A stretch of DNA of 64,000 nucleotides from Erysipelotrichia bacterium. Lineage in GTDB: Bacteria; Bacillota_I; Bacilli_A; RFN20; CAG-826. The notes beneath the pieces were generated by a model, which was not told the DNA's origin, made no database searches, and saw only the letters and a list, made by a program, of their open reading frames with translations. This document shows, piece after piece, positions 19,057-64,000 of this stretch. The translations under genes were made by a program, and so were the position numbers. Location: the NCBI GenBank assembly GCA_012522695.1, contig JAAYJX010000107.1, positions 22,408-86,407 on the forward strand, written 5' to 3'. Numbering within the stretch: position 1 is the stretch's first letter; each line of letters begins with the position of its first letter.

Positions 19057-19400
19057 GTATCGACCCTATAAGCCATGTTCTGTCAAAGGGTAACTATTTA
19101 TCTATGCACGTAAGTGCATGCGTGCCGCCATTCATTTCTTTTAGCACACTTCCCCTACCGAATTTGGGTTTCTCGCTTGTGGGGTTTACCAACGTTCCAC
19201 TTTAATGTTTCCACTAAACTACGTCACTGTGGCACTTTCAGAGTCTTAACCATAGCCTAAGCCTTAGGTTTTGACTCGCCGTTATGCGCTCCCGCATACC
19301 TAGTGTTATTTTTTCCACTAGCACAATCACTACGAGCATCTCAGCTCGTGCGAGCATGGACTTTCCTCTAAACTAAATTAGCAGTTACCGAGGTCGATAT
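19057..19400 (-). ncRNA. rnpB: RNase P RNA, bacterial type B
   Basis: Minus strand GAGGAAAGTCCATGCTCGC...AAAGTGCCACAGTGAC...GGTAAACCCCACAAGCGAG...ACAGAACATGGCTTA, terminal helix ATCGACC/GGTCGAT; gpsB-rnpB synteny. Confidence 0.97.
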
Positions 19401-27893: not shown

Positions 27894-27933
27894 AATAAAA
27901 AGCCCCTTTTTCAGGACTTAGTAAAAAGAAATT

Positions 27934-28038
27934 TGCTTCTTTCCTCTTGACTTTACAATCGCCTCTAGAATTTCACTAGATCTGCCGCAGCTCGTGGGGT
28001 TTACCACCGGTCATGAATTTCACACGGTCCTGAAGTAC
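27934..28038 (-). promoter_or_regulatory. FMN riboswitch (RFN element)
   Basis: Minus strand CTTCAGGACCGTGTGAAATTCATGACCGGTGGTAAACCCCACGA...GATCTAGTGAAATTCTAGAGGCGATTGTAAAGTC...AGAAG, with two TGAAATT T-loops. TATAAT lies at 28043-28048; downstream GTCCTGAA can pair with the 5' TTCAGGAC. Confidence 0.9.
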
Positions 28039-28092
28039 TTATATTATACAAAAAAAAGACTTAGCGACAAATAATATAGTAAAGAAATAAGC

Positions 28093-49567: not shown

Positions 49568-52063
49568 TTATTTTTTCTGATAATTATTTTTTAAAAATTC
49601 TAACGCGTCACTTTCATTTAAAGGACGTGATAAATAATAACCTTGAGCATAATCACAATTGTATGTTTTTAAATATTCTAAATGTGTTTCGTTTTCAACG
49701 CCTTCACCAACAACAAGAAAACCAAGTTTTTGACCAAGCGAGATAATGTCTTCAGTAATCGCTTTATTAATTTCAATTAATTCAATACCTTGTAAAAAAG
49801 CTTTATCAATTTTTAAAGCGTTGATTTCTAAAGAAATGAGACGATGAAGTGAAGAAAAGCCCGTGCCAAAGTCGTCAATTGCCACACGAATACCTTTTGA
49901 CGTTAATTTTTTTAATAATTGGTTAATACCAAAATAAGACGTTGTAAATGAAACTTCAGTTAATTCAAGCCAAATAGAACGTGGATTAACACCAATTGAT
50001 TCAATAAGAGCTAAAAATTTATTAACAAATTGGCGATCAAGTAATTGTTGAAAAGAAACATTAATCGACATCGACATATGATCATAGCCTAAATCATGGA
50101 CTGATTTTAAGAAAGTCAAAGCTAAACGGTTAATTTTATCACCGTAAATAATCATTAACTTATTCCTTTCTAATAGGGGAATAAATTCTAAAGGAGGGAT
50201 AAGACCTAACTTTTCGCTTTTAAAGCGGGCTAGGGCTTCAAAACCACTTATTTCGCCACGTTTAACATTAAAGATTGGTTGATATTGTAAATATAGTTGT
50301 TCATTATCAATTTGTACTGAAGCATCAACTAATTCTTTTAAAATTTGTTTTTCGCGTTCAATTTTTAAAGCAAGACGATCATCAAAATAACTAATCTCAA
50401 TTAATTTATCATCACTAGCTCTTTCTTGCTCAGTCGTTAAAAGAACGTTTTTAAGAATCGTTTCAAGTTGATTTGGCTTAGTATTTGGAGGAATATGTAA
50501 AACACCAACCCGGCACGTCACGCGTTCACTCCATAACAATGGTTCTAAAACTTTAACGACCTTTAAATAAAACTGATGGATTTCTTCTTCACTATCATAA
50601 TTTTTAATATAAAAACTTAAACGTGTTTCATGAGTAAGATATAGTTTACAATTATCATTTTCTAAAACTTTAAGTTTATTACTAATTTTCTTCATTAAAT
50701 CTCTTATATAGTGATAACCATGACTACTCGTTAATTGTTGAATTGAATTTAAGTTTAATAAGAAAAATGTTTTTTTCGATTTTTTATCATAAGTTAAATC
50801 ATACGTCATAAGTGTTTCTAAATAACGACGATTATGTAAACCCGTCCATTCATCAAATTCACTTCTATGTTTAATTTCTGCCTCATATTTTTTAATTTCG
50901 TTAATATCAATAATGATACCTTCTATGGCAATTGTTTCTTTATCACTATTAATGATCGGTTCACCAATTTCTAAGACCCATTTTTTCTCCTTATTTTTTG
51001 TAATAATCGGATATTGAAAACGGTATGTTGTTTGGTTTTTAACAGCTTTAAGTTGTAAATGGTAAATTTCACTTAAATATTCAGGGGCGATTAAATCGAT
51101 AAATTTTAAATCACGATTATCAATAAAAGCTTCAGGTTCATAACCAGTTAATTCTCTTGAACCTTTGGAAACAAACACTTTCGTAAAATCTTTATCAATG
51201 CGACTACGATAAGCTAAACCTGGTAGATGCGATAACAAAACGTCTTTGCTTCTTTCGCTTTCAAGAAAAGAAAGTTCAAATGATTTACGAATGCTCGTAT
51301 CACGAATAATCGCAAAATAAGTAAAAATTTCATCATCGGGAATATCGACTTTAATAACGAATAAATGCGTATAAACAACATCACCATTAGGACGGATAAA
51401 ACGTTTATCTAGATCATATCGATCAATTTTGCCTTTGATAAAATCGTTAAAGTATTTTAAATCTTTTTCTAAATCTTCTGGATGAGTATATTTTCGCCAG
51501 TCAATTTCGGTATGAAGGTCTTCTTCGATTGGCACGCCTAAAATATCGCGAAAAGCTTTATTAGCTCGAAATGATTGTAAGCGACCACCGCCTCTACGGA
51601 AAAACCTTGTAATGGAAATACCAAAAGGCGCGTGATTAAAAAGAGCAACAAAAATTTCACGCATATCCGATGATCTTTTTGAAGCGATAACATATTCTTG
51701 ATCTTTTTCAATTGAGCGAACGGCAAAATTTAAAGCATCACCATTAATTGGTGTCGTTAAATATTCAAATGTTTGTAGTTCTTGTGATTCTAAATTGTTT
51801 TTAATTGTTTCTTCTTTGCCAAGTAGAATAACACGAATATCTTTTATTTTTTTATCAAATTTTAAATGAGCTAAAAGTTGGTAACCTAATAAATCAGGAG
51901 CGTCTAAATCTAAAAATAAAAGGGGCGAACTTTCAATTTTAGCAAAATAAGCTAGTGCTTTTTGAATATTCGAACTATAAAAAATTTTATAATTGTTTAA
52001 AGCTAGGCTAATCGTTTTGTAATGTTCGTCTTCTTTTGAGAAAACAATCGCATGTTTTGTCAT
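49568..52063 (-). CDS. REC-like/PAS/PAS/degenerate GGDEF/EAL c-di-GMP phosphodiesterase
   Basis: LFLDL..P..GY receiver-like region; PAS (THPEDL); DEWTGLHNRR followed by HETRL in place of GGDEF; FEALAR, IDDFGTGFSS, KID, EGVE, QGYY. Confidence 0.88.
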   Translation of the reverse strand: MTKHAIVFSKEDEHYKTISLALNNYKIFYSSNIQKALAYFAKIESSPLLFLDLDAPDLLGYQLLAHLKFDKKIKDIRVILLGKEETIKNNLESQELQTFEYLTTPINGDALNFAVRSIEKDQEYVIASKRSSDMREIFVALFNHAPFGISITRFFRRGGGRLQSFRANKAFRDILGVPIEEDLHTEIDWRKYTHPEDLEKDLKYFNDFIKGKIDRYDLDKRFIRPNGDVVYTHLFVIKVDIPDDEIFTYFAIIRDTSIRKSFELSFLESERSKDVLLSHLPGLAYRSRIDKDFTKVFVSKGSRELTGYEPEAFIDNRDLKFIDLIAPEYLSEIYHLQLKAVKNQTTYRFQYPIITKNKEKKWVLEIGEPIINSDKETIAIEGIIIDINEIKKYEAEIKHRSEFDEWTGLHNRRYLETLMTYDLTYDKKSKKTFFLLNLNSIQQLTSSHGYHYIRDLMKKISNKLKVLENDNCKLYLTHETRLSFYIKNYDSEEEIHQFYLKVVKVLEPLLWSERVTCRVGVLHIPPNTKPNQLETILKNVLLTTEQERASDDKLIEISYFDDRLALKIEREKQILKELVDASVQIDNEQLYLQYQPIFNVKRGEISGFEALARFKSEKLGLIPPLEFIPLLERNKLMIIYGDKINRLALTFLKSVHDLGYDHMSMSINVSFQQLLDRQFVNKFLALIESIGVNPRSIWLELTEVSFTTSYFGINQLLKKLTSKGIRVAIDDFGTGFSSLHRLISLEINALKIDKAFLQGIELIEINKAITEDIISLGQKLGFLVVGEGVENETHLEYLKTYNCDYAQGYYLSRPLNESDALEFLKNNYQKK

Positions 52064-52194
52064 CGTGCTTTAGTAAACAAAGTAAACAACTCTGTTTTGT
52101 AATCTTATTATAATAAAGATAAGTTAAAAAATATATAAATATGTCAAAAATATTTTAATTTTTAAAAAATAAACATCTAAAAAGTTATTTTATT

Positions 52195-52920
52195 TTAATC
52201 AAAAGAGTGAACTAATTCTTCTAAAAGCGTCTCAATTAAGCTACCAATATGAGGCTGAGCTTCTAAACCAATACGTAGGGCAGATATTAGCTGATTATCT
52301 TTGCCAACTTCGTAAGTAACGGCTTTAAGTAAAAGCCAAGGAACGTCATGAACATAACATGCCGTAATAACGCCACCAGATTCTGTATCAAGGGCGATTT
52401 TATTTTCAATGTGCGAAAAGTTTTTCTTAATTAATTCATTCGCAACTTTTAAATTCGTATGAAAAGTATTCGTTGAAACAAGTGGTCCACGACCAATATT
52501 TAAGTTTTCTGTCCGTGAGTTAAGTGTTTGAATTAAACGAATGTAATCATCTTCACTTGAATAAAAAACAGGTAAGTCTTTAATTTGTCCATATTTAGTA
52601 TTACCTAAAGCTTCTAAGTTCATATCACCTAAATGAACACGTTCAGCAATAAATAAATCACCTTGATGAAGGTTAGGACTAATTGAAGTAACCGCACCAA
52701 CAGAAATAACAATATAAGGTTTATACTTACTAATCATAAAACTTGTCACAATTGCGGAAGTAATATTTGAATAACCTGTATGGGCCAAACAAACATCTTT
52801 ACCAGCAAAAGAACCAACATAATAAGGATGTTTCATCGCGATTTTGTTTTCTTCGCTAATTTTTAGACGAGATTTAAAATATAAAATATCGTCTTCGGTT
52901 GTGCCAATAATTAAAATCAT
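52195..52920 (-). CDS. MTA/SAH nucleosidase-like (PNP_UDP_1) protein, divergent
   Basis: ILIIG.., TG..ITSA, ISVGAV, GDLFIA, DTESGGV..ACY; several catalytic positions altered. Confidence 0.75.
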   Translation of the reverse strand: MILIIGTTEDDILYFKSRLKISEENKIAMKHPYYVGSFAGKDVCLAHTGYSNITSAIVTSFMISKYKPYIVISVGAVTSISPNLHQGDLFIAERVHLGDMNLEALGNTKYGQIKDLPVFYSSEDDYIRLIQTLNSRTENLNIGRGPLVSTNTFHTNLKVANELIKKNFSHIENKIALDTESGGVITACYVHDVPWLLLKAVTYEVGKDNQLISALRIGLEAQPHIGSLIETLLEELVHSFD

Positions 52921-54479
52921 TAATTACCACCTCTTCCTTTTTCAAAACGATTATTTTCTAAAAAGTTCATATAATTTTCTGGTCTAAGTGGTTCACTATA
53001 ATAAAACCCTTGAATACAATTTGCTCCCATTGATTGAAGAAGACGGATTTGTTCATATTCTTGAACACCTTCAATTACGACATATGCTTCTAAAATATGG
53101 GCAATTTTAATAATTTCACGGACTAAACCGCGTGATTTTTCATCAATTTCTAAATCACTTAAGAAAGCACGATCAATTTTAATAATGTCAAAAGGAATAC
53201 GTTTAATATAACTAAGTGAAGAGAAGCCTGTGCCAAAGTCGTCAATTGCTACTTTAATATTTAAAGCTTTAATTTTTTTGACAACCGCTAACAAATATAA
53301 AACGTCATATGGTGAAGGCGATTCAACGATTTCTACTTCTAATAACATCGGATTAATTTTATATTTTTTAATTGTTTCTTCAATATAAGGAACAACATCA
53401 CTACTAAAAATCATCCGTTTGGATAAGTTAACTGAAATAGGTAAAAGTCTTTTGCCGTGATCTCGCCAATGAGCTAAACGCTGACAAACAAGATCAAAAA
53501 CGTATTTATCAATTTCAATAATTAAATCAGATTGTTCGGCTAAAGAAATAAAAGCCGCTGGTGAAATTACACCACGCTCAGGATGAATCCAACGAAGTAG
53601 GGCTTCACTTGAAACAAAACGTTTAAGTTTTAAGTCGTATTTTGGTTGAAAGAAAACTTCAAATTCTTTTTTCTTTAAACCTTCTTCAATATCACGAGCT
53701 AAACCAACGTTACGTTCGCTTTTTTTAAACATTGAATCATTAAAAATAAAAATACCGCCGCGATCTGTATTAAGACGACCAAAATCACTTGCAATTAAAG
53801 CTGTTTGAAATAAACTTTCAGCCGAAGAGGTTTCTTTATTACGAATTGATAAACCATAGTGAGGATTAAAATCAATATTAACTTTTTCTTCACTTAAAAG
53901 ATGGTTAATATGTTCACTAAGTTTTTCTAAAGATTGTTGCATTTTCTTTTCGTTATATTTTGGAATAAAAAGTAAGAAGTTATCTGAATAATCATATCCA
54001 TAAAGTAATTTGGGATATTGTTTTTTTAATTCATCAATTGCTAAAAAAACCATACTAATAACTTTTGATTCTTTTTCATAACCATAACGTAAGAAAACTT
54101 CTTTTTTAAATTTAAACGTTGAAAAAGCAATTGCGACTGCTTCTTCATATTCTTTCCGACGGAAAAATTTATTAATTTGTAAAATTAAATCTCTTTCATC
54201 TAAAATATTTTCCGCTAATGGAAATAAGTTAGTATTTAAAACACGTTTAACAGATACTTGTTGCGAACGAGAGTAATTAATTAAGGCAAAAACTAAAAAG
54301 GCAATGCTTGTCAAAGTTAAAATAACAATTGCAAGTATTTTGTAGGCTAAATTACCATCAATGACTATAAAAGAGTCAAATAGCCCAGCGCTAACAATAA
54401 TATTTACAATAAAAAAGATAATAAAGCCTAAAAAATATAAGCTATATCGTAATGGATAATTAGGATTCTTATTTTTCAT
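52920..54479 (-). CDS. Membrane-anchored degenerate-GGDEF/EAL phosphodiesterase
   Basis: Two N-terminal TMs; YSDNF at the GGDEF position; SEALLRW, IDDFGTGFSSL, IKID, EGV, IQGFY. Confidence 0.88.
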   Translation of the reverse strand: MKNKNPNYPLRYSLYFLGFIIFFIVNIIVSAGLFDSFIVIDGNLAYKILAIVILTLTSIAFLVFALINYSRSQQVSVKRVLNTNLFPLAENILDERDLILQINKFFRRKEYEEAVAIAFSTFKFKKEVFLRYGYEKESKVISMVFLAIDELKKQYPKLLYGYDYSDNFLLFIPKYNEKKMQQSLEKLSEHINHLLSEEKVNIDFNPHYGLSIRNKETSSAESLFQTALIASDFGRLNTDRGGIFIFNDSMFKKSERNVGLARDIEEGLKKKEFEVFFQPKYDLKLKRFVSSEALLRWIHPERGVISPAAFISLAEQSDLIIEIDKYVFDLVCQRLAHWRDHGKRLLPISVNLSKRMIFSSDVVPYIEETIKKYKINPMLLEVEIVESPSPYDVLYLLAVVKKIKALNIKVAIDDFGTGFSSLSYIKRIPFDIIKIDRAFLSDLEIDEKSRGLVREIIKIAHILEAYVVIEGVQEYEQIRLLQSMGANCIQGFYYSEPLRPENYMNFLENNRFEKGRGGN

Positions 54480-55251
54480 CTTCATCTCTCCTTTCTTCGC
54501 TTGAAGACCGCAGTTTTTCTTTTTCTTTTTCAATTAAAAGTTTGAGTTTTTCTTGCTGCTTAATTTTTTCAAATTCATCTAAGCCTTCAAAATCAACTGA
54601 AACTTTTTCTGTTTCTTCTTTGCGCTCTTTAACATTTTTAGAAATATCAAAAAGCGAGCTAATAAAAACGTATAAAAGAGGAACAAGACCAACGATAATA
54701 ATCGTAAAAGGATTGCGCGTAAATTTAACGAAAAGTCCTAAAGCTTTAGAGTTTTTAATCCAAACTCCTAAGACGTCTTCTTCTTTAATCGTGTCAATTC
54801 CTTTACCCGTGCTTTGATCGCACACACCATTAGGAAATTGAGAACAAGTTTCGGCATTTTTATTATCACCAAATGTTTTAAAAGTAAATTTACCATCATT
54901 TTCAATTTTTTCAATAACACGGTGAGTAATAATTAAGCCGTCACTTCGACGGAAATAAGTAATAATATCGCCATCCATTGCATCCTCACTACTAGGTCCT
55001 TTAATTTGATTAGCGGGGACGCGTTTAATAATAATACCAACATCAATCGGTAAAACTGGCTCCATCGAATCAGTTAAAACTGTCAGCATTTGATAATTAC
55101 CAAATCGTTGCACACCATGGTTACTTCTCGCCGTAATTAAACCAAAGACTTGAAAAAAGAGTAAAAGACCAGCAAGCGAACCTAAAACAATCGTTGTAAT
55201 TCTATTTACAAGTTTCTTTTTTGGTAACTTAACTTTTTCTTTCTTATTCAT
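54469..55251 (-). CDS. sipW: Signal peptidase I, SipW/ER-type (S26B)
   Basis: VLTDSMEP (catalytic Ser), GDIITY, ITHRV (His instead of Lys), TFGDN; N- and C-terminal TMs. Confidence 0.88.
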   Translation of the reverse strand: MNKKEKVKLPKKKLVNRITTIVLGSLAGLLLFFQVFGLITARSNHGVQRFGNYQMLTVLTDSMEPVLPIDVGIIIKRVPANQIKGPSSEDAMDGDIITYFRRSDGLIITHRVIEKIENDGKFTFKTFGDNKNAETCSQFPNGVCDQSTGKGIDTIKEEDVLGVWIKNSKALGLFVKFTRNPFTIIIVGLVPLLYVFISSLFDISKNVKERKEETEKVSVDFEGLDEFEKIKQQEKLKLLIEKEKEKLRSSSEERRDEDEK

Positions 55252-56647
55252 CTTCTTTCCTTCTCATTTTAGCAACATTAATAACTTGTTCGCGCGCTTT
55301 TGCTAAAAGGGCTTCTTCTTCTAATCGTAGTTTTTCTAATCTTTCTTTTTCTTTTTTTGCTAAAATAGCGTCTTGTTTACGTTTAGCAAGAAGTAATTTA
55401 CGTTGACGTTCTTTTTCTTTCTTTTCAAGAGCTTTAAGTGCGGCAAGTTTTTTTGCCTCTTCGCGTTTTTCTAAAGCAAGTTGACGTTCTTTAGCTCTTT
55501 CTTCAAGACGAAGTTGTCGACGTTTTTCAGCCGCTTCAGCCCGTTTAATTTTTGCTTCAATTTGGGCAAGTGTTTCTTTTTTAACATCAACGCCGAAGGT
55601 TACGCTTTTACCAATAATTTTATCGTCAGTTAAATCAACATCAAGACGAACTTTTTTAAAGCGAGGTTTATAAAAGTATTGTTTCTTTTTATCACTTGGC
55701 ATCGTATGGTCACTTCTAAGTGTTAAATAAGAACTTAACATTAATAAATGTAAATCATCTAAATAATCTTCTTTAAATTCAATATCGTTTTGGCTAAAGC
55801 GATATTCAATACCTAAGACGTCATAACGTGTAATAAAAAGCCAGAGACGATACGCTGCTTGATATTCATAATTAAGACGCATTATATTTGTTTGTTGGAC
55901 CGGATCACTAACTGGTGCGACTTTACGCATTTCAAGCATAAAGCGCGAAGTTGTTAAGTATGTAATCCGTTTACGAATATGAAGAAGACGGTCGAGTAAA
56001 TCAGCATTAGCGTGTCTTTTCCCATCATCATCACTAGGAACAACAATCCGCATCTTAGTTTCAAATTCATATGATACTTCGTCGATTTTCATTTCTGAAG
56101 TTAATTTAACAATATCACTATGCCGTGTATCACTATGTTCAGATATATATTTATATCTAAGTTCAATAAAAGCTTGAAGACGACGAACAAGCGTCATAAT
56201 AAAACGGTTTTCATATATTTTTAATTCATCATCCATAAACATATTTAAAACTCGTTTAGGTTCGATTGTTCCATCACTACCAACTGAGCGGATATTTTGT
56301 GTATTTTGTGACATATGTTCAATTGAACGTTGGGTAATCTTTTTCGCCTTTTCAACACCGACAACTTCGGCTGTTTCTTTAATAAAACGATGTGGATCAT
56401 TAACAATTGCTTCTAAAGAAGGAAGCGCTCTTTCAATTTCTAAAATAAAATCAGGTGCATAAGTTTTAACTTCACGACGCGACACACCGCCATAAGTATT
56501 TTTAGAAGCAGCAAAAATATTTAAAAGTTCATGATATTCTTCATCACTACTTGCTAAACGTTTTAAGCGTGAAAAATGTTTTTGTTTTAAATCTTTAATA
56601 ATTTCGCTAGGAGTTAATACGGGAGCGTCTTTTTTGGTTTTTGCCAT
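55244..56647 (-). CDS. DUF2357 (McrC N-terminal-like) protein with a long charged coiled-coil tail
   Basis: PKRVL...IYENRFIMTL...TNIMRLNYEYQAAYRLW; lies directly after the McrB-like gene; E/K/R-rich C-terminus. Confidence 0.7.
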   Translation of the reverse strand: MAKTKKDAPVLTPSEIIKDLKQKHFSRLKRLASSDEEYHELLNIFAASKNTYGGVSRREVKTYAPDFILEIERALPSLEAIVNDPHRFIKETAEVVGVEKAKKITQRSIEHMSQNTQNIRSVGSDGTIEPKRVLNMFMDDELKIYENRFIMTLVRRLQAFIELRYKYISEHSDTRHSDIVKLTSEMKIDEVSYEFETKMRIVVPSDDDGKRHANADLLDRLLHIRKRITYLTTSRFMLEMRKVAPVSDPVQQTNIMRLNYEYQAAYRLWLFITRYDVLGIEYRFSQNDIEFKEDYLDDLHLLMLSSYLTLRSDHTMPSDKKKQYFYKPRFKKVRLDVDLTDDKIIGKSVTFGVDVKKETLAQIEAKIKRAEAAEKRRQLRLEERAKERQLALEKREEAKKLAALKALEKKEKERQRKLLLAKRKQDAILAKKEKERLEKLRLEEEALLAKAREQVINVAKMRRKEDE

Positions 56648-56662
56648 GACTATCCTCCTTTA

Positions 56663-58183
56663 TTAACCTATTTTTAAATAATCTGAAATAATTCTTTGTG
56701 ATTGCCAAAAAACACCTTTACCAAATAATTTATCAAGTTCACTCGAAAGTTCTTTTAATTCATCGTGCATAAACGCTAAGTTAAGCGAAGTAAATTTCTT
56801 TAAAACTTTAGAAGCAAAAATAAAATCAAGTGCTTCGTTTTCTGTACCCCCGCAAGCAATATAGTTCGAAGTAAAAAGACGAAGTTGTCTTAAAATTCGA
56901 TTACCAAAAGCAATCCGAAAACGATCAGCAACAAGTTTATCTAAACGATCAAATTTTGTTAATGCTTCTTTACTAATTGGGTAATTTGTTTGAGCGTTAG
57001 CAAAAAGTTTTAAAAAATCAGCTGAAGAAATTGAAACACCTTCCGTATATTCAACTGAACATGCTTCAATTTTTTCATTTAAAGTAATACTAATTGCTCG
57101 ATCATAAACTTTATCAGTAATTGTAAAAGTTGAGTCATCATTATTTGCTGTACCGACAAACCAAAGGTTTTGGGAAATAAGTAATTTACCATTTTCTAAT
57201 TGTTTAGGATTAATATTATCGGCTGTTCTTGTAATTTGAACTTTCCATTCATCAACCGAAGGCATTTCCATAATTGAAAGAAAGTCAGCAAAATAATATT
57301 CAATACGCGCGAGGTTCATTTCATCAAGAATAATCATATTCGGTTCTTGACGGTAACTTGCTTCATAAATAGCTTGTAAAAATTCGGTTTCATTAAACTT
57401 TTTCGTAAATTCATTAAAATAACCGAGCATTTCTGTTCTTTCTCGCCAAGATGGTTGAACAGAACATATTACCGCGTCATGTTTAAAAAACTTACCAATT
57501 GCATATGGTAAAGAAGTTTTACCAGTTCCCGAAATACCTTCTAAAATAATAAACTTCGATGTTCCTAACGCCGCAAACATCGTCCGAACTGTGCTCATAT
57601 CATAATATAAACAAAGCTGAGAGGCGGCAAAACGGAAAAAACGATCAACAATTTGTTCTAAAGAAATACCAATATCACTAGGTGGAACTTCGACAGTTGT
57701 ATCTAAATCAGCATATTTAATATCTATTGCTCCCAATTTTGGAAAGGCTTCTAAAACACGACGGTCACTACCTTCACCATCTTCACCTTCTGGTTGAAGA
57801 CCAAAAGAATCAGCTTTAAGTTTTAAAATTTCATTTTTTTCTTGAATTGCTAAAAATAATTCTTTATTTAATTTTTGCACTTCATCAAGAAGTTTTTCTT
57901 TTGAAACACGGCGATTATTAAAAACAATAAGTTTACGAACTAAAAAATACATAACGTAACCAAGTGAACCAATAAGGGCAAAGACTAAAATAATAAAAAC
58001 GACGAAGAGAATCCAGCCTCCTGCGCCGAATTGATGATTGTATGTTTGAAAAATTAATTTGTATTGACCAAAGTCACTACCAACTCCATACCAAGGTTCA
58101 GCAAAAATCGTTGCTAAAAAATGGCCTAAGTTTTTAAATAAAGCTTCAAACAACTCTCGAATGTAATTAAAAAATGCACTCAT
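56663..58183 (-). CDS. McrB-like AAA+ NTPase with N-terminal membrane anchor and coiled coil
   Basis: ILEGISGTGKTSL, VQPSW, LGYFN, LDEMNLARIEYYF, GTANNDDST (NxxD), KVYDRA; hydrophobic segment at about aa 55-80. Confidence 0.85.
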   Translation of the reverse strand: MSAFFNYIRELFEALFKNLGHFLATIFAEPWYGVGSDFGQYKLIFQTYNHQFGAGGWILFVVFIILVFALIGSLGYVMYFLVRKLIVFNNRRVSKEKLLDEVQKLNKELFLAIQEKNEILKLKADSFGLQPEGEDGEGSDRRVLEAFPKLGAIDIKYADLDTTVEVPPSDIGISLEQIVDRFFRFAASQLCLYYDMSTVRTMFAALGTSKFIILEGISGTGKTSLPYAIGKFFKHDAVICSVQPSWRERTEMLGYFNEFTKKFNETEFLQAIYEASYRQEPNMIILDEMNLARIEYYFADFLSIMEMPSVDEWKVQITRTADNINPKQLENGKLLISQNLWFVGTANNDDSTFTITDKVYDRAISITLNEKIEACSVEYTEGVSISSADFLKLFANAQTNYPISKEALTKFDRLDKLVADRFRIAFGNRILRQLRLFTSNYIACGGTENEALDFIFASKVLKKFTSLNLAFMHDELKELSSELDKLFGKGVFWQSQRIISDYLKIG

Positions 58184-58239
58184 CTATTAACTCCAATAAT
58201 ATATGATAACTTTAGTTAAAGAAAAAATCACCCTTATTT

Positions 58240-59436
58240 TTAAATATCTTCTTCACTAGCAGCACTAAAGCGTAAGTTTGCACCGAACGATTTAGATCTA
58301 AGCTTGTTGCTAGAAAAGGCGTCCCAGCCTTCATACCAAATTTGAATTTTAATTTCGGCCACGCCTTTTGTGTCAGTTTTAGCAATTGGCTGACCATCAA
58401 TAAATTCGGCGCTATAAGTCGAAAAAATTGTATGTTCTTGAAGGGCTGGTTTGTAGTTAGGGTGATCAATTAATAAAGGGCGTACGCCTTGTAATGTCCC
58501 TGCTTGATGAAGCGAGGGGGTTATACTAGTTTCCAAAGGAATACTTTCAGTAGTAATATCCCCCCAATTACTTTCATCTAAAGGTTCTAAGAAATCGCCA
58601 TAAGCAATTTCATAACGTGAGCCAACTTCTGATTCATCATTTGGATTAATTTTAGATCCCTCAGGTGTGGCATCAAAAAATCCATCTTCATCTAAATCAA
58701 GGCGGCCCCCGACCGTTGTGTAATCATTTGTATCGCGACCCGGACTAATAATATCGCTCGTTAATTGGCTTTCAAAACCAAAACGCAAAACTTTCAGCAA
58801 TTCTTCGCTGCCATAAAATTCATTGTCCGCGCCGATGAAGATGCCATAATTAGCAACTCCACTTGATGATGTCTCACCATTAGTTGCTTTCGCTACCCGA
58901 AATAATATTGTAAAAGAAATAAATGTTTCTTTATCAGCGGGTATTATTTGTTTTGCTTGTGGACGAGAACTACCGGCAATTGGTTCTTGATATAAGTTAA
59001 TTGCATCACCTTTACTAAAACGTCGAGAAGTAATAGGCATAACTGCATTAGTAACCGAGAAACCATTGTGATAGATAATTTGTCGCAACGTTTGATTATT
59101 AACGACGTTGCTCGTCCAATAAACATAGCCGTCACCTTCAATTCCGTATTCATCTGGAACTAAAGAATATTTTTCTTGTTCATTAATCGAAATTGGTGTG
59201 GCGACACGAAAGCCTACTTCTCTTATGCCGACTTCTTCTTTATTTAAAAAGTCAAAGCCGATTGTCGTTGTGTTAGCTAAATATTCACCAATCGTATAGC
59301 CAAGATAAGAAATTAAGACAAACGCTGCTAAAACACTACTTGAAATCGAGGTTAAAATGATCGAACGTTTTTTACGCTTCTTATGATCATTAACTTCTTT
59401 TTCTATATTAATTTGACGCAAACGCAAGTCCTCCAC
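58240..59436 (-). CDS. Membrane-anchored secreted protein, divergent paralog of the SipW-substrate proteins
   Basis: KKRKKR plus TM; shares LRFG and IWYEGWD..SN motifs with the 60.4-63.8 kb paralogs. Start may be TTG 59421 after GGAGG. Confidence 0.7.
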   Translation of the reverse strand: MEDLRLRQINIEKEVNDHKKRKKRSIILTSISSSVLAAFVLISYLGYTIGEYLANTTTIGFDFLNKEEVGIREVGFRVATPISINEQEKYSLVPDEYGIEGDGYVYWTSNVVNNQTLRQIIYHNGFSVTNAVMPITSRRFSKGDAINLYQEPIAGSSRPQAKQIIPADKETFISFTILFRVAKATNGETSSSGVANYGIFIGADNEFYGSEELLKVLRFGFESQLTSDIISPGRDTNDYTTVGGRLDLDEDGFFDATPEGSKINPNDESEVGSRYEIAYGDFLEPLDESNWGDITTESIPLETSITPSLHQAGTLQGVRPLLIDHPNYKPALQEHTIFSTYSAEFIDGQPIAKTDTKGVAEIKIQIWYEGWDAFSSNKLRSKSFGANLRFSAASEEDI

Positions 59437-59633
59437 TTTCTTAATAGAAATAGTCTAAAGAGACATCTTTGTTCGGTAAATTCACCATGTTTTGATTCTA
59501 ACCCCATTACTTGTTAGAGATCACTTGTGAAAAGATGCCTTTCTCACTAACTTGTTTAGACTTGTTAGGAGTCCCTCTAAAGAATAAAACGATGCTAACC
59601 GAGAATTGCCCAGAATCAATTAGTTATCTTATT

Positions 59634-59714
59634 CTTTCGGCAACTGGCTACCATCGTTTTGAAGGCCCTATAGTTTTGCGTCGCTAAATTTCTTTAGTTT
59701 TGCCTTTTTCGGTA
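59634..59714 (-). promoter_or_regulatory. c-di-GMP-I (GEMM) riboswitch
   Basis: Minus strand GGCAAAACTAAAGAAATTTAGCGACGCAAAACTATAGGGCCT...TAGCCAGTTGCC: GGCAAA, GAAA-capped P2, GACGCAAA junction, 3' TGCC. Confidence 0.9.
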
Positions 59715-59717
59715 TTG

Positions 59718-59746
59718 ATTATATAACAACTCAATAATCTTGTAAA
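59718..59746 (-). promoter_or_regulatory. SigA-like promoter for the riboswitch-led operon
   Basis: TTTACA (59741-59746), 17 nt spacer, TATAAT (59718-59723), immediately upstream of the aptamer. Confidence 0.65.
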
Positions 59747-59851
59747 GCCTTTTAATCAAAATTAGTCATATTTCACTAAATTATTACATTTTACTATGTA
59801 AAGAATGCAAAAAGACATATACTTTATCCAGTTATAACAACCTTAAACATA

Positions 59852-59882
59852 AAGAAAAAACCACCTAGAGATGGCTTTTCTT
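59852..59882 (-). terminator. Probable terminator after the 59908-60267 gene
   Basis: Minus strand AAGAAAAGCCA-TCTCTAGG-TGGTTTTTTCTT. Confidence 0.55.
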
Positions 59883-59907
59883 CATCTATTAATAATATCT
59901 AAATTAA

Positions 59908-60267
59908 TTATTTTTCTTTTTTAGCCGCTAATTCTTTTTCAAGTTCTTCACGTGCTTGACGACGCGCTTCTTCTAAAAGTTCTTCGTGCGATAAAGCCGC
60001 TACAGCGCCTTCTTTTTCCGTCATTAATGATTTAACAAGTAAGAAGACATTAAACAAGAATAGAATGATTAAAGGCAATACAATTAAAACAAAGAACCAA
60101 ACAGGATTCATTTGTAACCATTTAATAAACATATTAGATGATTCCCCTAACGTAGTTAAGGCAACAATTGAAATAGTAACGAGAACAACGGTAAGTACGA
60201 TCTGTGCGATAACTAAAACCAAATTCAGCCAGCTAGGCAATTTAATTTTTGTTTTTTCTTTATTCAT
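59908..60267 (-). CDS. Small two-TM membrane protein with C-terminal coiled coil
   Basis: Two hydrophobic helices and EELLEEARRQAREEL; resembles the non-catalytic parts of SipW. Confidence 0.75.
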   Translation of the reverse strand: MNKEKTKIKLPSWLNLVLVIAQIVLTVVLVTISIVALTTLGESSNMFIKWLQMNPVWFFVLIVLPLIILFLFNVFLLVKSLMTEKEGAVAALSHEELLEEARRQAREELEKELAAKKEK

Positions 60268-60325
60268 ATATGAGCTCCATGCATATTAAAAAAATATATT
60301 CTTTACGATAAAACTATCTTAATAG

Positions 60326-60376
60326 AAAAAAACTAGGGTGTCAAATTAAATTTATTCGACAAGCCCTAGTTATTTT
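60326..60376 (-). terminator. Terminator after fibre-like paralog (copy 1)
   Basis: AACTAGGG...CCCTAGTT stem followed by a T run on the minus strand. Confidence 0.7.
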
Positions 60377-60406
60377 AGAAAACTACGTTATAAACTTTGT
60401 AAGAAA

Positions 60407-61300
60407 TTAAGCAATAACTGGTAATGCGTACATCTTAAGATCGATTTTAAAGACACCACCGATAGCAGCGTTAACTGCGTGTTCGTCTTCGCCTTCAATC
60501 CAAAAACGGAAAGTGACATCAACAGTTGGAGCAGCGGATGTAAGTGTAAGGAAGGGTTCATAATTGTCAGCAGCAGCTTCTGCTACAGTTGGGTAGTAAT
60601 CAAATGCAGCGCCTTCCACAACGTCAGTTAAAACTTCAGTGTCAAGATATTCTTTAACACCCCAAGCTTCATCTTGGTCATCACCAGTTTTGGTTAAATA
60701 ATTGTAAGTTGTTTCTGCTTCAGGTGAATAATGATAAAATGCAGCTCCACCTTTAATCGCGGCCATACGAACGGCTTTAACAGCAGCAACGTCTGCGGCA
60801 TCAGCGCTTGCAGCGGTAACTGCAGTGCCTGCGTCAAAATAAACGTTTAAATCATTTGTTGATTGTGCGCCTGAGCCACGAGCGATTGTTAATGTAAAGT
60901 CAATTAAATAACCATCGGCATCACCAGCAGCGGCTAATGTAATATCATCAATACGATCGGCAACTTGGCCTCCGCCATAGGTGTTGGCCTTCCAGACTGG
61001 TTTGTAAAAATCAATACCGTCGCCGGAAATGTCAGTAACCTTGTTACCGCCTGAAAGAACAACATTATTAACAGTTTTACCATCATTAACATAATCATTA
61101 GTTGTGGCAGTCATAGTGTTTAGGGATGAAACATAGTGAACACTTAAGTCATTATCTTGTGTTTCAACGGTTGCGCTACTATATGAGATAGATGCGCTAC
61201 GGACGGTTGTAAACCAAGCAAATGTTGAGCTGGTTGCAGCAATACCACTTAAAACAACGAGTCCCATAATTGTAAGTAATACTTTATTTTTCTTATTCAT
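60407..61300 (-). CDS. Secreted protein with SipW-type signal peptide (TasA/camelysin-like candidate)
   Basis: MNKKNK, hydrophobic stretch, STFAWF; acidic mature part rich in Thr/Val/Ala; FRFWIEGED. Confidence 0.8.
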   Translation of the reverse strand: MNKKNKVLLTIMGLVVLSGIAATSSTFAWFTTVRSASISYSSATVETQDNDLSVHYVSSLNTMTATTNDYVNDGKTVNNVVLSGGNKVTDISGDGIDFYKPVWKANTYGGGQVADRIDDITLAAAGDADGYLIDFTLTIARGSGAQSTNDLNVYFDAGTAVTAASADAADVAAVKAVRMAAIKGGAAFYHYSPEAETTYNYLTKTGDDQDEAWGVKEYLDTEVLTDVVEGAAFDYYPTVAEAAADNYEPFLTLTSAAPTVDVTFRFWIEGEDEHAVNAAIGGVFKIDLKMYALPVIA

Positions 61301-61336
61301 AATTTTAAATTCTCCTTTTGTAATGAATATTCTTTA

Positions 61337-62227
61337 TTATAAGTTTACGGGTAATCCGTAAAGTTGTAATTCGATGTCGAATAATCCGCCAATGGCGTCA
61401 TTATCACAATGAACATCTTCACCTTCGAGCCATGCACGGAAGGTAACATCAACTGAAGCTCCTTTTGCCACACTAGCAATTGCAGTTGTAGCACCATCAG
61501 CAGTAGTCACATCAGTGTATTCAACAAACGCATTGTAATAAGGTCCGGCGTGGACAGCGGTTGTATACCCGTCTACACTATAAAGGTCTTCACCAGCGTC
61601 TTCGACAATGTGCTTATGTCCACCAGCTTCTGCTTCAGGTGAATAAATTAAGACGACAGCATCAGCTGCGCTAATAACAGCTAAGCGTGCAGCTTTAACA
61701 GCGGCAGCATTTTTAGCTTCTTGAGCTAATTCTTCTGGTGTTGCAGTACCCCCAGCGTATTCAACTTCTTTAGCAATAATTTTTGTGTCTGGACCAAGAT
61801 ATACTTTCATATCATCATCACCAATATCGTCAAGACTAATCGTGATCGTAAAGTCAACGTAATAACCATCAGCGCTTGTTGCACCCACGGTTGGAATTTC
61901 ATTAGCGACACGAGCAGATGGTTTGTCAAGTAGTGAATTCCAAACAGGTTTGTAAAAAACAAGACCATCACTTGAGACGTCTGTAATATCATTAATGCCA
62001 TCTAAAATGATTTCGTTGGCACTGCCAGTATCAGTCATACCAGAGTTTAATGAAGATTTAAAAGCAATATCTAAATTACCTTCTTTAGTAACGACTTTCG
62101 CGCTGGAATAATGTAGGGAAGCTGTTCGCGCAGTATAAAACCAAGCAAACGTTGAACTAATAGCAGCAATTCCGCTTAAAAAAGCTAAGCCAATTGTTGC
62201 TAATAAAATTTTGTTTTTCTTATTCAT
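61337..62227 (-). CDS. Secreted protein with SipW-type signal peptide (paralog)
   Basis: MNKKNK...STFAWF; TDVSSDG, FYKPVW, ADGYYVDFT, FRAWLEGED. Confidence 0.8.
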   Translation of the reverse strand: MNKKNKILLATIGLAFLSGIAAISSTFAWFYTARTASLHYSSAKVVTKEGNLDIAFKSSLNSGMTDTGSANEIILDGINDITDVSSDGLVFYKPVWNSLLDKPSARVANEIPTVGATSADGYYVDFTITISLDDIGDDDMKVYLGPDTKIIAKEVEYAGGTATPEELAQEAKNAAAVKAARLAVISAADAVVLIYSPEAEAGGHKHIVEDAGEDLYSVDGYTTAVHAGPYYNAFVEYTDVTTADGATTAIASVAKGASVDVTFRAWLEGEDVHCDNDAIGGLFDIELQLYGLPVNL

Positions 62228-62368
62228 GTAGAAAATCCTCCAATAGATTTCTCCTTTGTTGTTAAGGAGTTGTGAGGTCCAAATTGTTAATGGGACAATG
62301 GCCTCAAAGCGGGCAATTCGCTTCTAGTATCCATCAACGAGGGAGGTCAAATAAATACTAGCACCATT

Positions 62369-62398
62369 ATTATAGTATGTTTTGTAACTAAAATGCAA
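62369..62398 (-). promoter_or_regulatory. SigA-like promoter for the 62227/61300 gene pair
   Basis: TTGCAT (62393-62398), 18 nt spacer, TATAAT (62369-62374), just upstream of a structured leader. Confidence 0.5.
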
Positions 62399-62688
62399 GT
62401 ATTATGTTGTTACGAAGTAACAAGAAATTAAATTTTTAACATTTTTAAAAGTTTTTTGAAAAAAATTCGCTTTATTTTTATAAATTTAGATTTTTTAAGT
62501 GAATAAGTGACTTTGAAAAATGTGTGATTTTTTTAGTTTTTGTTTCTTTTTAAAAAACCATTATTTTTGTCGTAAAAAATATTTTTTTGCCTTGTGATGT
62601 TTTTTATAATAAAAATTGAGTTTTTTTGAGACTATTTTAGCCTTTTTGAAAAAACTAAATTTTAAAAATTATAAAAGCTGTTTTGGAT

Positions 62689-62736
62689 AAAAAAACTAGG
62701 GCTTTTTATAAGTAAATTGTTTGCCCTAGTTATTTT
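62689..62736 (-). terminator. Terminator after fibre-like paralog (copy 2)
   Basis: Same AAAAAAACTAGGG...GCCCTAGTTATTTT arms as at 60326-60376. Confidence 0.7.
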
Positions 62737-62755
62737 GTTAGTTTATAAGAATTAA

Positions 62756-63829
62756 TTAAATGACTGACAATGCATACATTCTTAGGTCAATACTAAAGAC
62801 ACCACCAATTGCGGCGTTAACTGCATCATCGTCTTCGCCTTCAACCCAAAAGCGGAAAGTAATATGAGCAGTTGGATCAGCTTCAGTAAGTGTAAGAAGG
62901 GGTTTATAATTTGCGTCTTCAGCTTCGACAACAGTTGAAAAATATTTAAACTCAGAACCTTTTTCATTTATTGTCGGTGTTGAAGGGTCATCTTGAATAC
63001 CTTCAACAGCATTAATCACATCTTCAGGATCAGCGGCATCACCTAAAATTGATGTATTAGAATAACCTAAAATAGTATAAGTAGTTCCACCACTGTCTTC
63101 ACTTAAATAATTATAAAGAGGCTCCGCGTGTGGCGCGTAATAGAAAATAGGCTTTAAGGGGCTTATATCGTCTATTACGGGATTATCAGGGTCAGTAATG
63201 TCATAAGTAACATCTGTTTCAATTACGGCCATTCTTACGGCTTCAACGACTTTATTATTTCGATCTTGTTGTTCAATTTGAGCATTACTTGGATTTTGAT
63301 TTTCGCCTATAACATCAATTGGCGAAATAAGTGTCCCACGATCAAAATAAATATTTAAATCATTTGGCGAATAAAGGTTAACACCACGAGCTATTTCTAA
63401 AGTAAAATCAATTAAATATCCATCAGCAGATTTAGTAAGATTGCCTTTATTATCTTTGTAAGATAAATCTATTTCATTAATATAGTCAGCTATACTTGCA
63501 TCGCCTGGATCATAAGCACTCCAAACAGGTTTGTAAAAATTAATGCCATCGCCTGAAATATCAGTAACTTTGTTAAGACCAGAAAGGACAACATTATTAG
63601 AACTTTTTCCTTCATTAACAGAAAGATTTGTTGTTGCGGTCACTGAATTAAGTGATGATATATATTTAACACTTAGGTCGTTATTTTTTGTTTCAACAGT
63701 TGCGCTTGTAAAAGAAATTATCGCACTACGAACGGTAGTAAACCAAGCAAAGGTTGAACCAGTCGCCGCCGCACCACTTAAAACAACAAGGCCAATTGTT
63801 GTTAGTAATAATTTATTTTTCTTATTCAT
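62756..63829 (-). CDS. Secreted protein with SipW-type signal peptide (paralog with acidic insertions)
   Basis: MNKKNK...STFAWFTTVRSA; NKVTDISGDG, FYKPVW, FRFWVEGED. Confidence 0.8.
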   Translation of the reverse strand: MNKKNKLLLTTIGLVVLSGAAATGSTFAWFTTVRSAIISFTSATVETKNNDLSVKYISSLNSVTATTNLSVNEGKSSNNVVLSGLNKVTDISGDGINFYKPVWSAYDPGDASIADYINEIDLSYKDNKGNLTKSADGYLIDFTLEIARGVNLYSPNDLNIYFDRGTLISPIDVIGENQNPSNAQIEQQDRNNKVVEAVRMAVIETDVTYDITDPDNPVIDDISPLKPIFYYAPHAEPLYNYLSEDSGGTTYTILGYSNTSILGDAADPEDVINAVEGIQDDPSTPTINEKGSEFKYFSTVVEAEDANYKPLLTLTEADPTAHITFRFWVEGEDDDAVNAAIGGVFSIDLRMYALSVI

Positions 63830-63852
63830 TTTTTTATTTCTCCATAAGCTTT

Positions 63853-64000
63853 TTATTGATCGTAATGTTTACGAATTTCGATTGTTTCAATTGTAAAAGT
63901 CAGACCTTGATAAACATTAGAGTTACCTAATGTTGATTTTTCATAAAAAACATCACCATTATCTTTTGAGGCAAATTTATAAAAAGTTGAGGGGTCGCCA
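63853..64000 (-). CDS. 3' end of an upstream gene (partial), possibly another secreted subunit
   Basis: Open frame from the window edge: GDPSTFYKF...LGNSNVYQGLTFTIETIEIRKHYDQ*, stop at 63853-63855. Confidence 0.6.
   Translation of the reverse strand, partial: GDPSTFYKFASKDNGDVFYEKSTLGNSNVYQGLTFTIETIEIRKHYDQ

Follow-up and report, generated by a model that had tools for sequence, protein, structure and literature searches.

What is a relative of McrBC, a DNA-cutting defence motor, doing in the membrane and among genes for secreted surface proteins? The question is raised by a locus at the end of a 64,000-nucleotide stretch of DNA (the window) from the Erysipelotrichia bacterium assembly GCA_012522695.1, corresponding to positions 22408-86407 of contig JAAYJX010000107.1 (C57). 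An McrB-like AAA+ NTPase and an McrC-like protein of the DUF2357 type are coded there together with a SipW-type signal peptidase, a series of candidate SipW substrates, EAL proteins and riboswitches for cyclic di-guanosine monophosphate (c-di-GMP). An original prediction, made from the sequence alone, had described the locus as a surface-fibre system, in which the pair acts as a membrane motor with c-di-GMP feedback.

The explanation which we prefer, with somewhat more belief than doubt, is that subunits of the TasA type are likely processed by SipW and likely polymerise, and that the membrane-anchored McrB/McrC pair would be a controller of fibre assembly or display, driven by nucleoside triphosphates (NTP) and induced by c-di-GMP. 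It builds on the conservation of the gene association. Genome contigs were searched for McrB, giving 355 confirmed matches, and the best 80 loci were fetched; 48 of them are well flanked, with at least 3 kb upstream and at least 4 kb downstream of McrB. Synteny of the pair with sipW and with genes carrying the TxAWF cleavage motif had been proposed as a check: McrC, SipW and subunit genes were found on the McrB strand in all 48 well-flanked loci, and in 68 of the 80 overall (the best 80 of 355).

Organization of the locus

The host genome is an 88%-complete assembly of 1.18 Mb with 32% GC, whose nearest named relatives are uncultured Bacilli; RNA runs matching it derive from anaerobic digesters and biogas fermenters. 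All the elements listed by the original prediction were found again, on the minus strand, and the locus extends for about 4.9 kb past the window end, on C57. Its features are reported below, with lengths in amino acids (aa) and TM for transmembrane; positions refer to the window, unless C57 is indicated.

C57:90568 to contig end, plus strand: divergent 7-TM diguanylate cyclase, with the GGDEF domain intact in the continuing frame on contig C30
C57:90304-90384, minus strand: second c-di-GMP-I riboswitch, 65.5 bits, directly before the 279-, 777- and 275-aa genes
C57:89428-90267, beyond the window: putative 279-aa SipW-type substrate, open reading frame (ORF) with the same kind of signal peptide
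C57:87092-89425, beyond the window: putative 777-aa SipW-type substrate, ORF with the same kind of signal peptide
63853-64000 (C57:86260-87087), minus strand: putative 275-aa SipW-type substrate (TYAWF), only the 3' end lying in the window; ORF and motif, subunit profiles at E 1e-4 to 2.5e-7
62756-63829, minus strand: 357-aa TFAWF subunit paralogue, terminator-like hairpin after the gene
61337-62227, minus strand: 296-aa TFAWF subunit, TATAAT box at 62374, covered by RNA-library contigs
60407-61300, minus strand: 297-aa TFAWF subunit, beta-sandwich by prediction, N-terminal segment poorly ordered
59908-60267, minus strand: 119-aa membrane protein, two helices and a charged tail, terminator at 59880-59855
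59718-59746, minus strand: sigma-70-type promoter-like site, 11/12 consensus match only, best in the region, 4 nt before the riboswitch
59636-59714, minus strand: c-di-GMP-I riboswitch with an overlapping terminator-like hairpin, 66.5 bits
58240-59421 (ORF to 59436), minus strand: chimeric subunit paralogue with a membrane anchor, TxAWF cleavage motif absent, probable TTG start at 59421
56663-58183, minus strand: McrB-like AAA+ NTPase of the NxD class, 506 aa, with TM helix and coiled coil
55244-56647, minus strand: McrC-like DUF2357 protein with a charged helical tail, no nuclease domain detected
54469-55251, minus strand: SipW-type signal peptidase, Ser62/His110
52920-54479, minus strand: two-TM EAL phosphodiesterase-like protein, EAL motifs intact, no GGDEF motif
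52195-52920, minus strand: protein with MTA/SAH nucleosidase (MTAN) fold, conserved C-terminal SD-motif Asp absent
49568-52063, minus strand: REC-PAS-PAS-degenerate GGDEF-EAL protein, EAL motifs intact

The count of at least three TFAWF paralogues given by the original prediction is borne out by the 357-, 296- and 297-aa genes, and the run of machinery genes has the order that had been described, from the anchored paralogue through McrB, DUF2357 protein, SipW, TM-EAL and MTAN-like protein to a second EAL protein. The gaps within the run, expected to be of about 56 nt or less or to be overlaps, measure 56, 15, -8, -11 and -1 nt, the 8-nt overlap being that between the SipW and McrC genes; another 131 nt separate the run from the gene at 49568-52063. 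The 119-aa membrane protein, previously passed over, is conserved in 30 loci. It resembles the C-terminal helix and charged tail of SipW, matching that part of the SipW profile at E 4e-9, possibly as an effect of composition. On the opposite side, the last 25 nt of C57 recur in contig C30, and link the frame of the cyclase to its GGDEF domain.

Terminator-like hairpins follow the 357-, 297- and 119-aa genes, so that a layout in four units is suggested: the second riboswitch with the 279-, 777-, 275- and 357-aa genes; the 296/297-aa pair with its TATAAT box; the 119-aa gene; and the first riboswitch with the machinery. The 296- and 297-aa genes are flanked by such hairpins and have no riboswitch ahead. 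The totals of the promoter and terminator scans are near chance (61 vs 60.7, and 12 vs 8.0 with a standard deviation of 3.4, respectively), and it is the position of the sites alone that is suggestive. Contigs from RNA libraries (4 metatranscriptome runs from 3 studies) cover 58153-59702 and 60375-62349 piecewise and mostly mismatch-free, DNA carry-over being possible. The part from McrB to EAL is thinly covered in the same four runs, and contig ends at 62341-62349 and 59694-59702 lie near two predicted starts; contigs can neither rank genes nor show starts, and neither observation was used as evidence.

The McrB/McrC pair

When the profile of the McrB family was compared with the PDB, the only match was E. 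coli McrB (6hz4, E 6e-6). A Walker A motif is present in all of 116 homologues, and the N-x-DDS...DK..DR signature (N.DDS-5-DK..DR) in 115 of them; N-x-DDS was found in 96 of 97 McrBs and not located in one, and corresponds to the NxD class of Bell et al. An N-terminal hydrophobic helix occurs in 95/95 full-length homologues (residues 56-74 in the window protein), and the helix after it carries the conserved residues L105, E115 and K116. No DNA-reader domain was found on McrB, the N-terminal 140 aa of which are made up of amphipathic, TM and coiled-coil helices. Rates of non-synonymous substitution are far below the synonymous ones in 6/6 pairs (the latter being saturated in 2), and, in comparisons with distant loci, McrB shows the highest conservation of all the operon genes (51-53%). 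Homology of the N-terminal domain to FtsB, reported by Bell et al. with an HHpred E-value of 1.2 (PMC11090510; here and below, cited work is described from the portions of the texts that were available), found little echo: DivIC was matched in 1 of 28 cases (E 0.006) and FtsL in 2 of 28, and FtsB was absent from the PDB matches.

The McrC protein of the window has no Pfam match itself; 25 of 46 aligned members of its family match DUF2357, and the Atlas assigns the protein to DUF2357 both by features (0.96) and by structure (TM 0.74). A YENRF motif is found in 87 of 108 homologues. No family of PD-(D/E)xK nucleases was detected among the 46 members, and the naming of the pair as McrB-like, DUF2357-type and nuclease-less can be maintained. 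Matches of a PD-(D/E)xK regular expression in the tails were disregarded, since charged tails match it by chance. Against the PDB, the McrC profile gave no significant true relative, the tail matching mainly long helical proteins, and weakly. In the window protein the tail is of low complexity, with 52% charged residues, no proline and a net charge of +14; its length ranges from 70 to 752 aa across homologues.

In McrBC, a finger of McrC fills the pore of the McrB ring and stimulates hydrolysis, and has been proposed to rotate or step (PMC7680126). Use of NTP is predicted for the window McrB as well. A preference for GTP is not assumed, because some McrB relatives do not discriminate nucleotides, the R2 proteins of LlaI and BsuMI being not GTP-specific (10.64898/2026.08.31.748284).

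Subunits and signal peptidase

The SipW protein matches NF046067 at E 4e-18, below the model's cut-off. Ser62 and His110, presumably its catalytic pair, are invariant in 39/39 aligned homologues. In the subunits, TxAWF evidently follows a hydrophobic helix. The signal had been classed as of the TIGR04088 type; the model matches none of the window proteins, and only 3/47 and 5/47 relatives, weakly. Searches of Pfam and NCBIfam gave no name to the subunits of the window. Homology connects the TFAWF family, the anchored-paralogue family and the subunits of Lachnospiraceae (hhalign 99.6% and 99.5%). A fourth family, which is membrane-anchored, resembles them at the C-terminus alone (97.2%), where all have a motif of the WxEGxD type.

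The 297-aa subunit was modelled by AlphaFold (AF2) with a 144-sequence alignment, reaching a mean predicted local distance difference test (pLDDT) of 83; a single-sequence model (pLDDT 39.8) was discarded. In a comparison with 48,161 representative chains by VIA-align, whose own bar is Z 8, the top match was the TasA fibre 8AUR (Z 6.5, root-mean-square deviation 3.4 over 139 aligned residues), followed by 7PNB (5.9), a glycosidase domain (5.1), VesC (4.8), the cannulae 9H8B (4.8), the bundling pili 7UEG (4.7) and 9BAC (4.6). Five of these top seven (ranks 1, 2, 5, 6 and 7) belong to the TasA superfamily, to which 7PNB, 7UEG and the cannula proteins have been assigned (10.1101/2024.12.30.630787). 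The core match begins at residue 48-50 and leaves residues 29-47 outside; the donor strand of TasA occupies the corresponding N-terminal position (PMC9674648, 10.1101/2024.12.30.630787). On the basis of this model, the fold of the subunit is likely TasA-like. Weak FimA rows obtained with Foldseek are consistent with a general Ig-like pilin fold. Camelysin (PF12389) matches a neighbouring gene in L103 above cut-off and one in L047 below it, and the Atlas suggests PF12389 for the subunit (0.88), as a lead only. The prediction of a two-copy complex of residues 29-297 gave no answer (score 0.00), and counts neither for nor against polymerisation.

The anchored paralogue is present and homologous to the TFAWF family, as had been described, except that its start is probably the TTG at 59421, preceded by a ribosome-binding site, and that the protein is chimeric. 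Throughout the window's clade (9 sequences), scores for the anchor are 18-30 bits vs the uncleaved anchor family and 2-8 vs TxAWF anchors, and those for the body 79-107 bits vs the TxAWF family and 0-15 vs the anchor family. As the loci of this clade also have no separate anchor gene, we infer that the paralogue arose through a fusion by deletion. The 777-aa protein is likely a tip adhesin, because of its size.

Predicted control by c-di-GMP

Both riboswitches exceed by far the gathering score of 35 of the c-di-GMP-I model (RF01051), and the one ahead of the machinery had been described by the original prediction. They are the only two matches of the model in the assembly; similarly, both ORFs of the genome with the EAL loop motif fall within the locus, and none elsewhere. 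In both leaders, a hairpin can be formed by the aptamer 3' strand and the RNA downstream, with a U-rich tract after it. For the first riboswitch the pairing amounts to -26.1 kcal/mol, with 0/500 shuffles as good, and for the overlapping terminator-like hairpin of the second 6/500 shuffles were as good. Since the aptamer 3' strand overlaps the terminator hairpin, both are predicted to be transcriptional ON switches.

The same arrangement was looked for in 44 leaders (42 of 43 matches and the two own ones), 7 of which lacked the 3' motif; an overlapping terminator was found in 28 of the 37 tested, in 3 of those by only 2-3 nt. Riboswitches occur in 38 of 100 loci (8 of the 38 helped build the model), and in 13 of 20 hand-picked loci from a phylum-level sample, in three of these 13 as triple tandems. 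The triple aptamers stand ahead of the anchor-subunit gene (L101:3811-4150, L102:3742-4083, L111:15178-15513), another one preceding the downstream subunit genes. Within the 48 well-flanked loci, EAL or GGDEF genes were found in 27, PilZ genes in 8, a riboswitch in 23, and at least one of these in 35; PilZ genes were seen in 9 loci, mostly of Lachnospiraceae. The c-di-GMP wiring that had been proposed, represented here by two riboswitches, a cyclase and two EAL proteins, is supported by these findings.

The MTAN-like protein matches TIGR01704 with 85.6 bits, above cut-off. It has Tyr203 in place of the conserved Asp of the C-terminal SD motif, which we take to be catalytic; among 34 homologues, this column is most often occupied by Y (16), L (9) and G (3). 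The protein is likely non-catalytic. A link to Spiroplasma Fibril (NF033570, E 1.9e-6) was not retained, as ordinary MTAN models gave much better scores.

Distribution of the pair and of its partners

The fetched loci span Bacilli, Lachnospiraceae, other Clostridia, Collinsella and Eggerthella (taxa as recorded), and include the named strains Bacilliculturomica massiliensis (L047) and Sporofaciens sp. SGI.106 (L068). Seven records carry other names (Prevotella, Hallerella, Escherichia, Alistipes, Sodaliphilus, Faecalibacterium and Bacteroides for L016, L022, L023, L025, L026, L028 and L030); their McrBs are placed among Bacilli in the tree, so that the names look mislabelled.

In 61 related genomes, McrB was found in 34, SipW in 46 and the anchored-subunit family in 25. 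Of the 24 relatives in which McrB is close (E<=1e-110), 23 have this last family, vs 2 of the 37 others (both at E ~7e-6), and SipW is present in 33 of the 34 McrB-positive genomes. In the phylum-level sample, the McrC domain was found in 72 of 399 scored genomes, several large families being at zero, and the full core was present in 12 of 20 loci hand-picked from it. The system is common: each of 8000 candidates that were scored proved to be a homologue of McrB (E<=0.001). In several loci from Lachnospiraceae (L058, L061, L064, L071, L075), a gene with a prepilin peptidase A24 N-terminal domain lies just upstream of the subunit run; in L114, genes for McrC, subunit and SipW are present, and McrB was not detected in the fetched stretch.

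The pair also stands next to surface proteins of other kinds. In L098:4160-13738 and L099:4023-13009, an McrB-McrC-McrB series has two large surface proteins as neighbours, one of them a membrane protein of 1000 aa that carries two transglutaminase-like domains. In L105, L108, L110 and L112, McrB/McrC come after a membrane protein of 428-455 aa and a giant one (>2000 aa) that is anchored at its C-terminus; in the two loci scanned (L105 and L112), the giant consists of cadherin-like repeats, and the membrane protein is a weak or degenerate GGDEF-EAL. Three genomes have both this module and a SipW-type locus (L105/L104, L108/L107, L110/L109). In L117:632-14922, two riboswitches and two BspA-type leucine-rich-repeat proteins precede TM-McrB, McrC and an EAL gene, with no SipW. 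On predicted gene content, the commonest shared factor of the loci is thus the presence of surface adhesins and c-di-GMP elements, not SipW as such. A further subtype (L089-L092, L096) combines SipW, a multi-TM McrB, an McrC ending in a zinc ribbon, an ABC transporter and a Listeria-Bacteroides repeat protein; McrBs with 12-13 predicted TM helices were seen in L097:8097-12291 and L120.

Comparison with known systems

The original prediction knew of no described system with this combination of genes, a statement that does not stand for its core. CoCoPALM, named in a few sentences and with no experiment by Bell et al. 2024 (PMC11090510), consists of a membrane-anchored NxD McrB, a coiled-coil McrC and a signal peptidase. 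The locus is very likely a member, to judge from its predicted proteins: in both, an NxD McrB is fused to a TM helix and a coiled coil, a DUF2357 McrC carries a coiled-coil-like tail, and a signal peptidase gene is adjacent; a pilus role was proposed for CoCoPALM, too (PMC11090510). The two differ in the peptidase, which the available supplement likens to SipA (4N31) and which is here of the SipW type, with an invariant Ser/His dyad. The terms c-di-GMP, EAL, TasA and riboswitch do not occur in the main text of Bell et al. (PMC11090510), and in the portions of that work which were available we did not find the subunits, riboswitches, EAL or PilZ genes, MTAN-like gene or SipW-less adhesin variants. 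The accession lists of 10 homologues that were looked up do not include RHC33375.1, the reference of the CoCoPALM clade. Literature searches, from which subscription journals were largely excluded, found no follow-up paper on CoCoPALM (an announced one may exist), nor any on SipW with DUF2357, or on SipW with Lachnospiraceae, pili and AAA. By sequence, the locus is a variant of the system with c-di-GMP riboswitches and SipW/TasA-type genes, of which these searches yielded no description.

The tapA-sipW-tasA operon of B. subtilis and the TasA superfamily (8AUR, 7PNB, 7UEG, cannulae; PMC9674648, 10.1101/2024.12.30.630787) share with the locus a dedicated SipW-type peptidase with putatively cognate signal peptides, and a beta-sandwich with a free N-terminal strand, which is predicted here; in addition, no sortase match was found in the host genome. 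Unlike the B. subtilis operon, the locus has seven candidate substrates or paralogues, including a membrane-anchored and a 777-aa one, its subunits are larger and only 9% identical to TasA, and it has an NTPase pair and riboswitches, whereas the B. subtilis operon is controlled by SinR (PMC9674648, 10.1101/2024.12.30.630787). With the restriction GTPase McrBC of E. coli and T. gammatolerans (PMC7680126), the pair shares the AAA+ Walker A/B motifs, sensor loop and Arg motif, and the N-terminal DUF2357 of McrC, but it has NxD instead of NxxD, a membrane anchor instead of a DNA reader, and a charged tail instead of a PD-(D/E)xK nuclease. The loci L105 and L112, with a giant adhesin, a degenerate GGDEF-EAL membrane protein and c-di-GMP, resemble in logic only the LapA/LapD/LapG system of Pseudomonas, as outlined in the accounts available. 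The EAL proteins of the window, in contrast, look catalytically intact, and the host is monoderm; to our knowledge, the Lap system has no McrBC pair.

A model for the locus and its alternatives

In the mechanism that we propose, the ligand would bind the two aptamers, which head the operon of the minor subunits and that of the machinery, and would block the overlapping terminators, so that both operons are expressed at high c-di-GMP, the divergent cyclase and the two EAL proteins setting and damping the signal. SipW would cut the TxAWF signal peptides and free the N-terminal strand, by which the TasA-like subunits may polymerise through donor-strand exchange; the anchored paralogue, which is not cleaved, would serve as the base of the fibre, and the 777-aa protein would form its tip. 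McrB would form a membrane-fixed ring, with the DUF2357 finger in its pore, stimulating hydrolysis and stepping round, as carried over from the McrBC structures. The McrC tail could pass this movement to cytoplasmic parts of the SipW tail, the anchor subunit, the 119-aa protein and TM-EAL, and the output would be the gating, positioning or release of adhesins, not the driving of polymerisation itself. A bolder version, which we put forward tentatively and regard as rather doubtful, has the McrB ring as stator and the nuclease-less McrC as rotor or arm of a membrane-fixed rotary machine, mechanically gating, positioning or retracting TasA-type fibres and other adhesins under c-di-GMP.

Several results weigh against the controller model. 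Fibres of the TasA family self-assemble, and have been described without any NTPase (PMC9674648, 10.1101/2024.12.30.630787). All structural Z scores of the subunit stay below 8 (best 6.5), with a glycosidase domain at third rank and FimA at 5.3; Foldseek, used with the pLDDT-83 model, gave nothing at E<=0.001, and the subunit profile had no significant match to PDB sequences. The comparison with TasA/CalY which had been suggested therefore has TasA as its best hit by one method and nothing by the other, and leaves the fold likely, not proven. The profiles for subunits and SipW were built from the same loci, whose kin are not independent; the families nevertheless first emerged from an unsupervised clustering of loci. 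The sign of the McrC tail charge is not fixed (57 positive and 42 negative of 100 homologues). No c-di-GMP element lies within the fetched stretch of 13 of the 48 well-flanked loci, and of 18 hand-picked relative loci that are well flanked, the full core is present in no more than 9. In five loci, SipW, McrB and an McrC-like gene are found with an ABC transporter and no detected subunit of the TFAWF-type family; three others (L094, L097, L120) have a multi-TM McrB and McrC with no obvious surface partner. The occurrence of the pair by cadherin-like, leucine-rich-repeat or transglutaminase-domain surface proteins without fibre subunits weakens the view of a dedicated fibre engine. Finally, SipW is found at E<=1e-10 in 11 of 27 McrB-negative relatives, so the motor is not required for SipW systems generally. 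Of the surface-fibre system that had been predicted, the role of the subunits is supported, with TasA as best structural match and the SipW dyad intact, while the motor as dedicated assembly engine is weakened: given a pair that stands by non-fibre adhesins and a SipW that occurs without the pair, a c-di-GMP-linked controller of adhesin display is more likely than a required polymerisation motor.

The same evidence bears on the alternatives. That McrB/McrC is a true assembly or retraction motor, acting on membrane precursors or the fibre base, and that fibres are not made or moved without it, appears unlikely. The constant placement among subunit and sipW genes in the 48 well-flanked loci, the model in which McrC steps round inside the ring of McrB (PMC7680126) and the stalk-like variation in tail length (70-752 aa) would fit such a motor; it is cytoplasmic, however, with no channel gene recurring in the loci, in TasA-family fibres assembly proceeds by itself in the accounts available, and the same pair lies beside unrelated single-chain adhesins. 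We give a low probability to a switch for signalling or scaffolding only, which would co-localise EAL, GGDEF and PilZ proteins with SipW and have no mechanical output. It could explain the EAL, PilZ or riboswitch elements of 35 of the 48 well-flanked loci, the degenerate GGDEF-EAL genes directly before McrB in cadherin-type loci and the retention in the operon of a likely non-catalytic MTAN-fold protein, but the full set of catalytic motifs is strictly kept, and in many loci of Lachnospiraceae and Collinsella the stretch that was fetched contains no gene related to c-di-GMP.

An anti-phage or anti-plasmid system within a surface-protein operon, guarding for instance a phage receptor, is very improbable in our judgement. 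McrBC ancestry, the patchy presence (34 of 61 relatives), and two matches, of the PADLOC candidate model PDC-M26A to the AAA domain (E 4e-41) and of a PN-superfamily effector model to the MTAN-like protein (E 1.6e-5), would agree with defence; the 46 McrC members include no McrC-type nuclease family, though, no nuclease or methylase could be recognised among protein clusters shared by at least 9 loci, no gene of the operon is better conserved at depth than McrB (51-53%), and its induction by c-di-GMP is predicted to be joint with that of adhesins. The chances appear slimmest for a fibre capturing DNA, with the McrB ring keeping its role as DNA translocase for uptake, or tethering the nucleoid: McrB powers DNA translocation in the published accounts of McrBC that were available, the genome has a ComEC-like gene and the window McrC tail has a net charge of +14, but comEC lies on another contig with no recurrent channel gene in the loci, 42 of 100 homologues have an acidic tail, and no DNA-reader domain was found.

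Should the controller model be true, a powered or gated step would be added to TasA-family fibres, a class described as self-assembling and regarded as passive, and McrBC would have been re-used for adhesion. The rotary machine, if true, would give surface appendages a motor of a new class, spread over Bacilli, Clostridia and Coriobacteriia from guts and digesters. CoCoPALM has so far been only a name; what the locus adds are candidate substrates, a peptidase that appears active and a putative inducing signal, and with these the function becomes testable.

Other features of the window

Two large lipoprotein-like genes, one of them with a PPIC rotamase domain (PrsA-like), lie at 45466-49030 and converge on the end of the locus; both genes are retained at the same spot in close relatives. 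Elsewhere, the window contains ordinary RNAs, namely a class B RNase P at 19064-19396 and an FMN riboswitch at 27930-28041.

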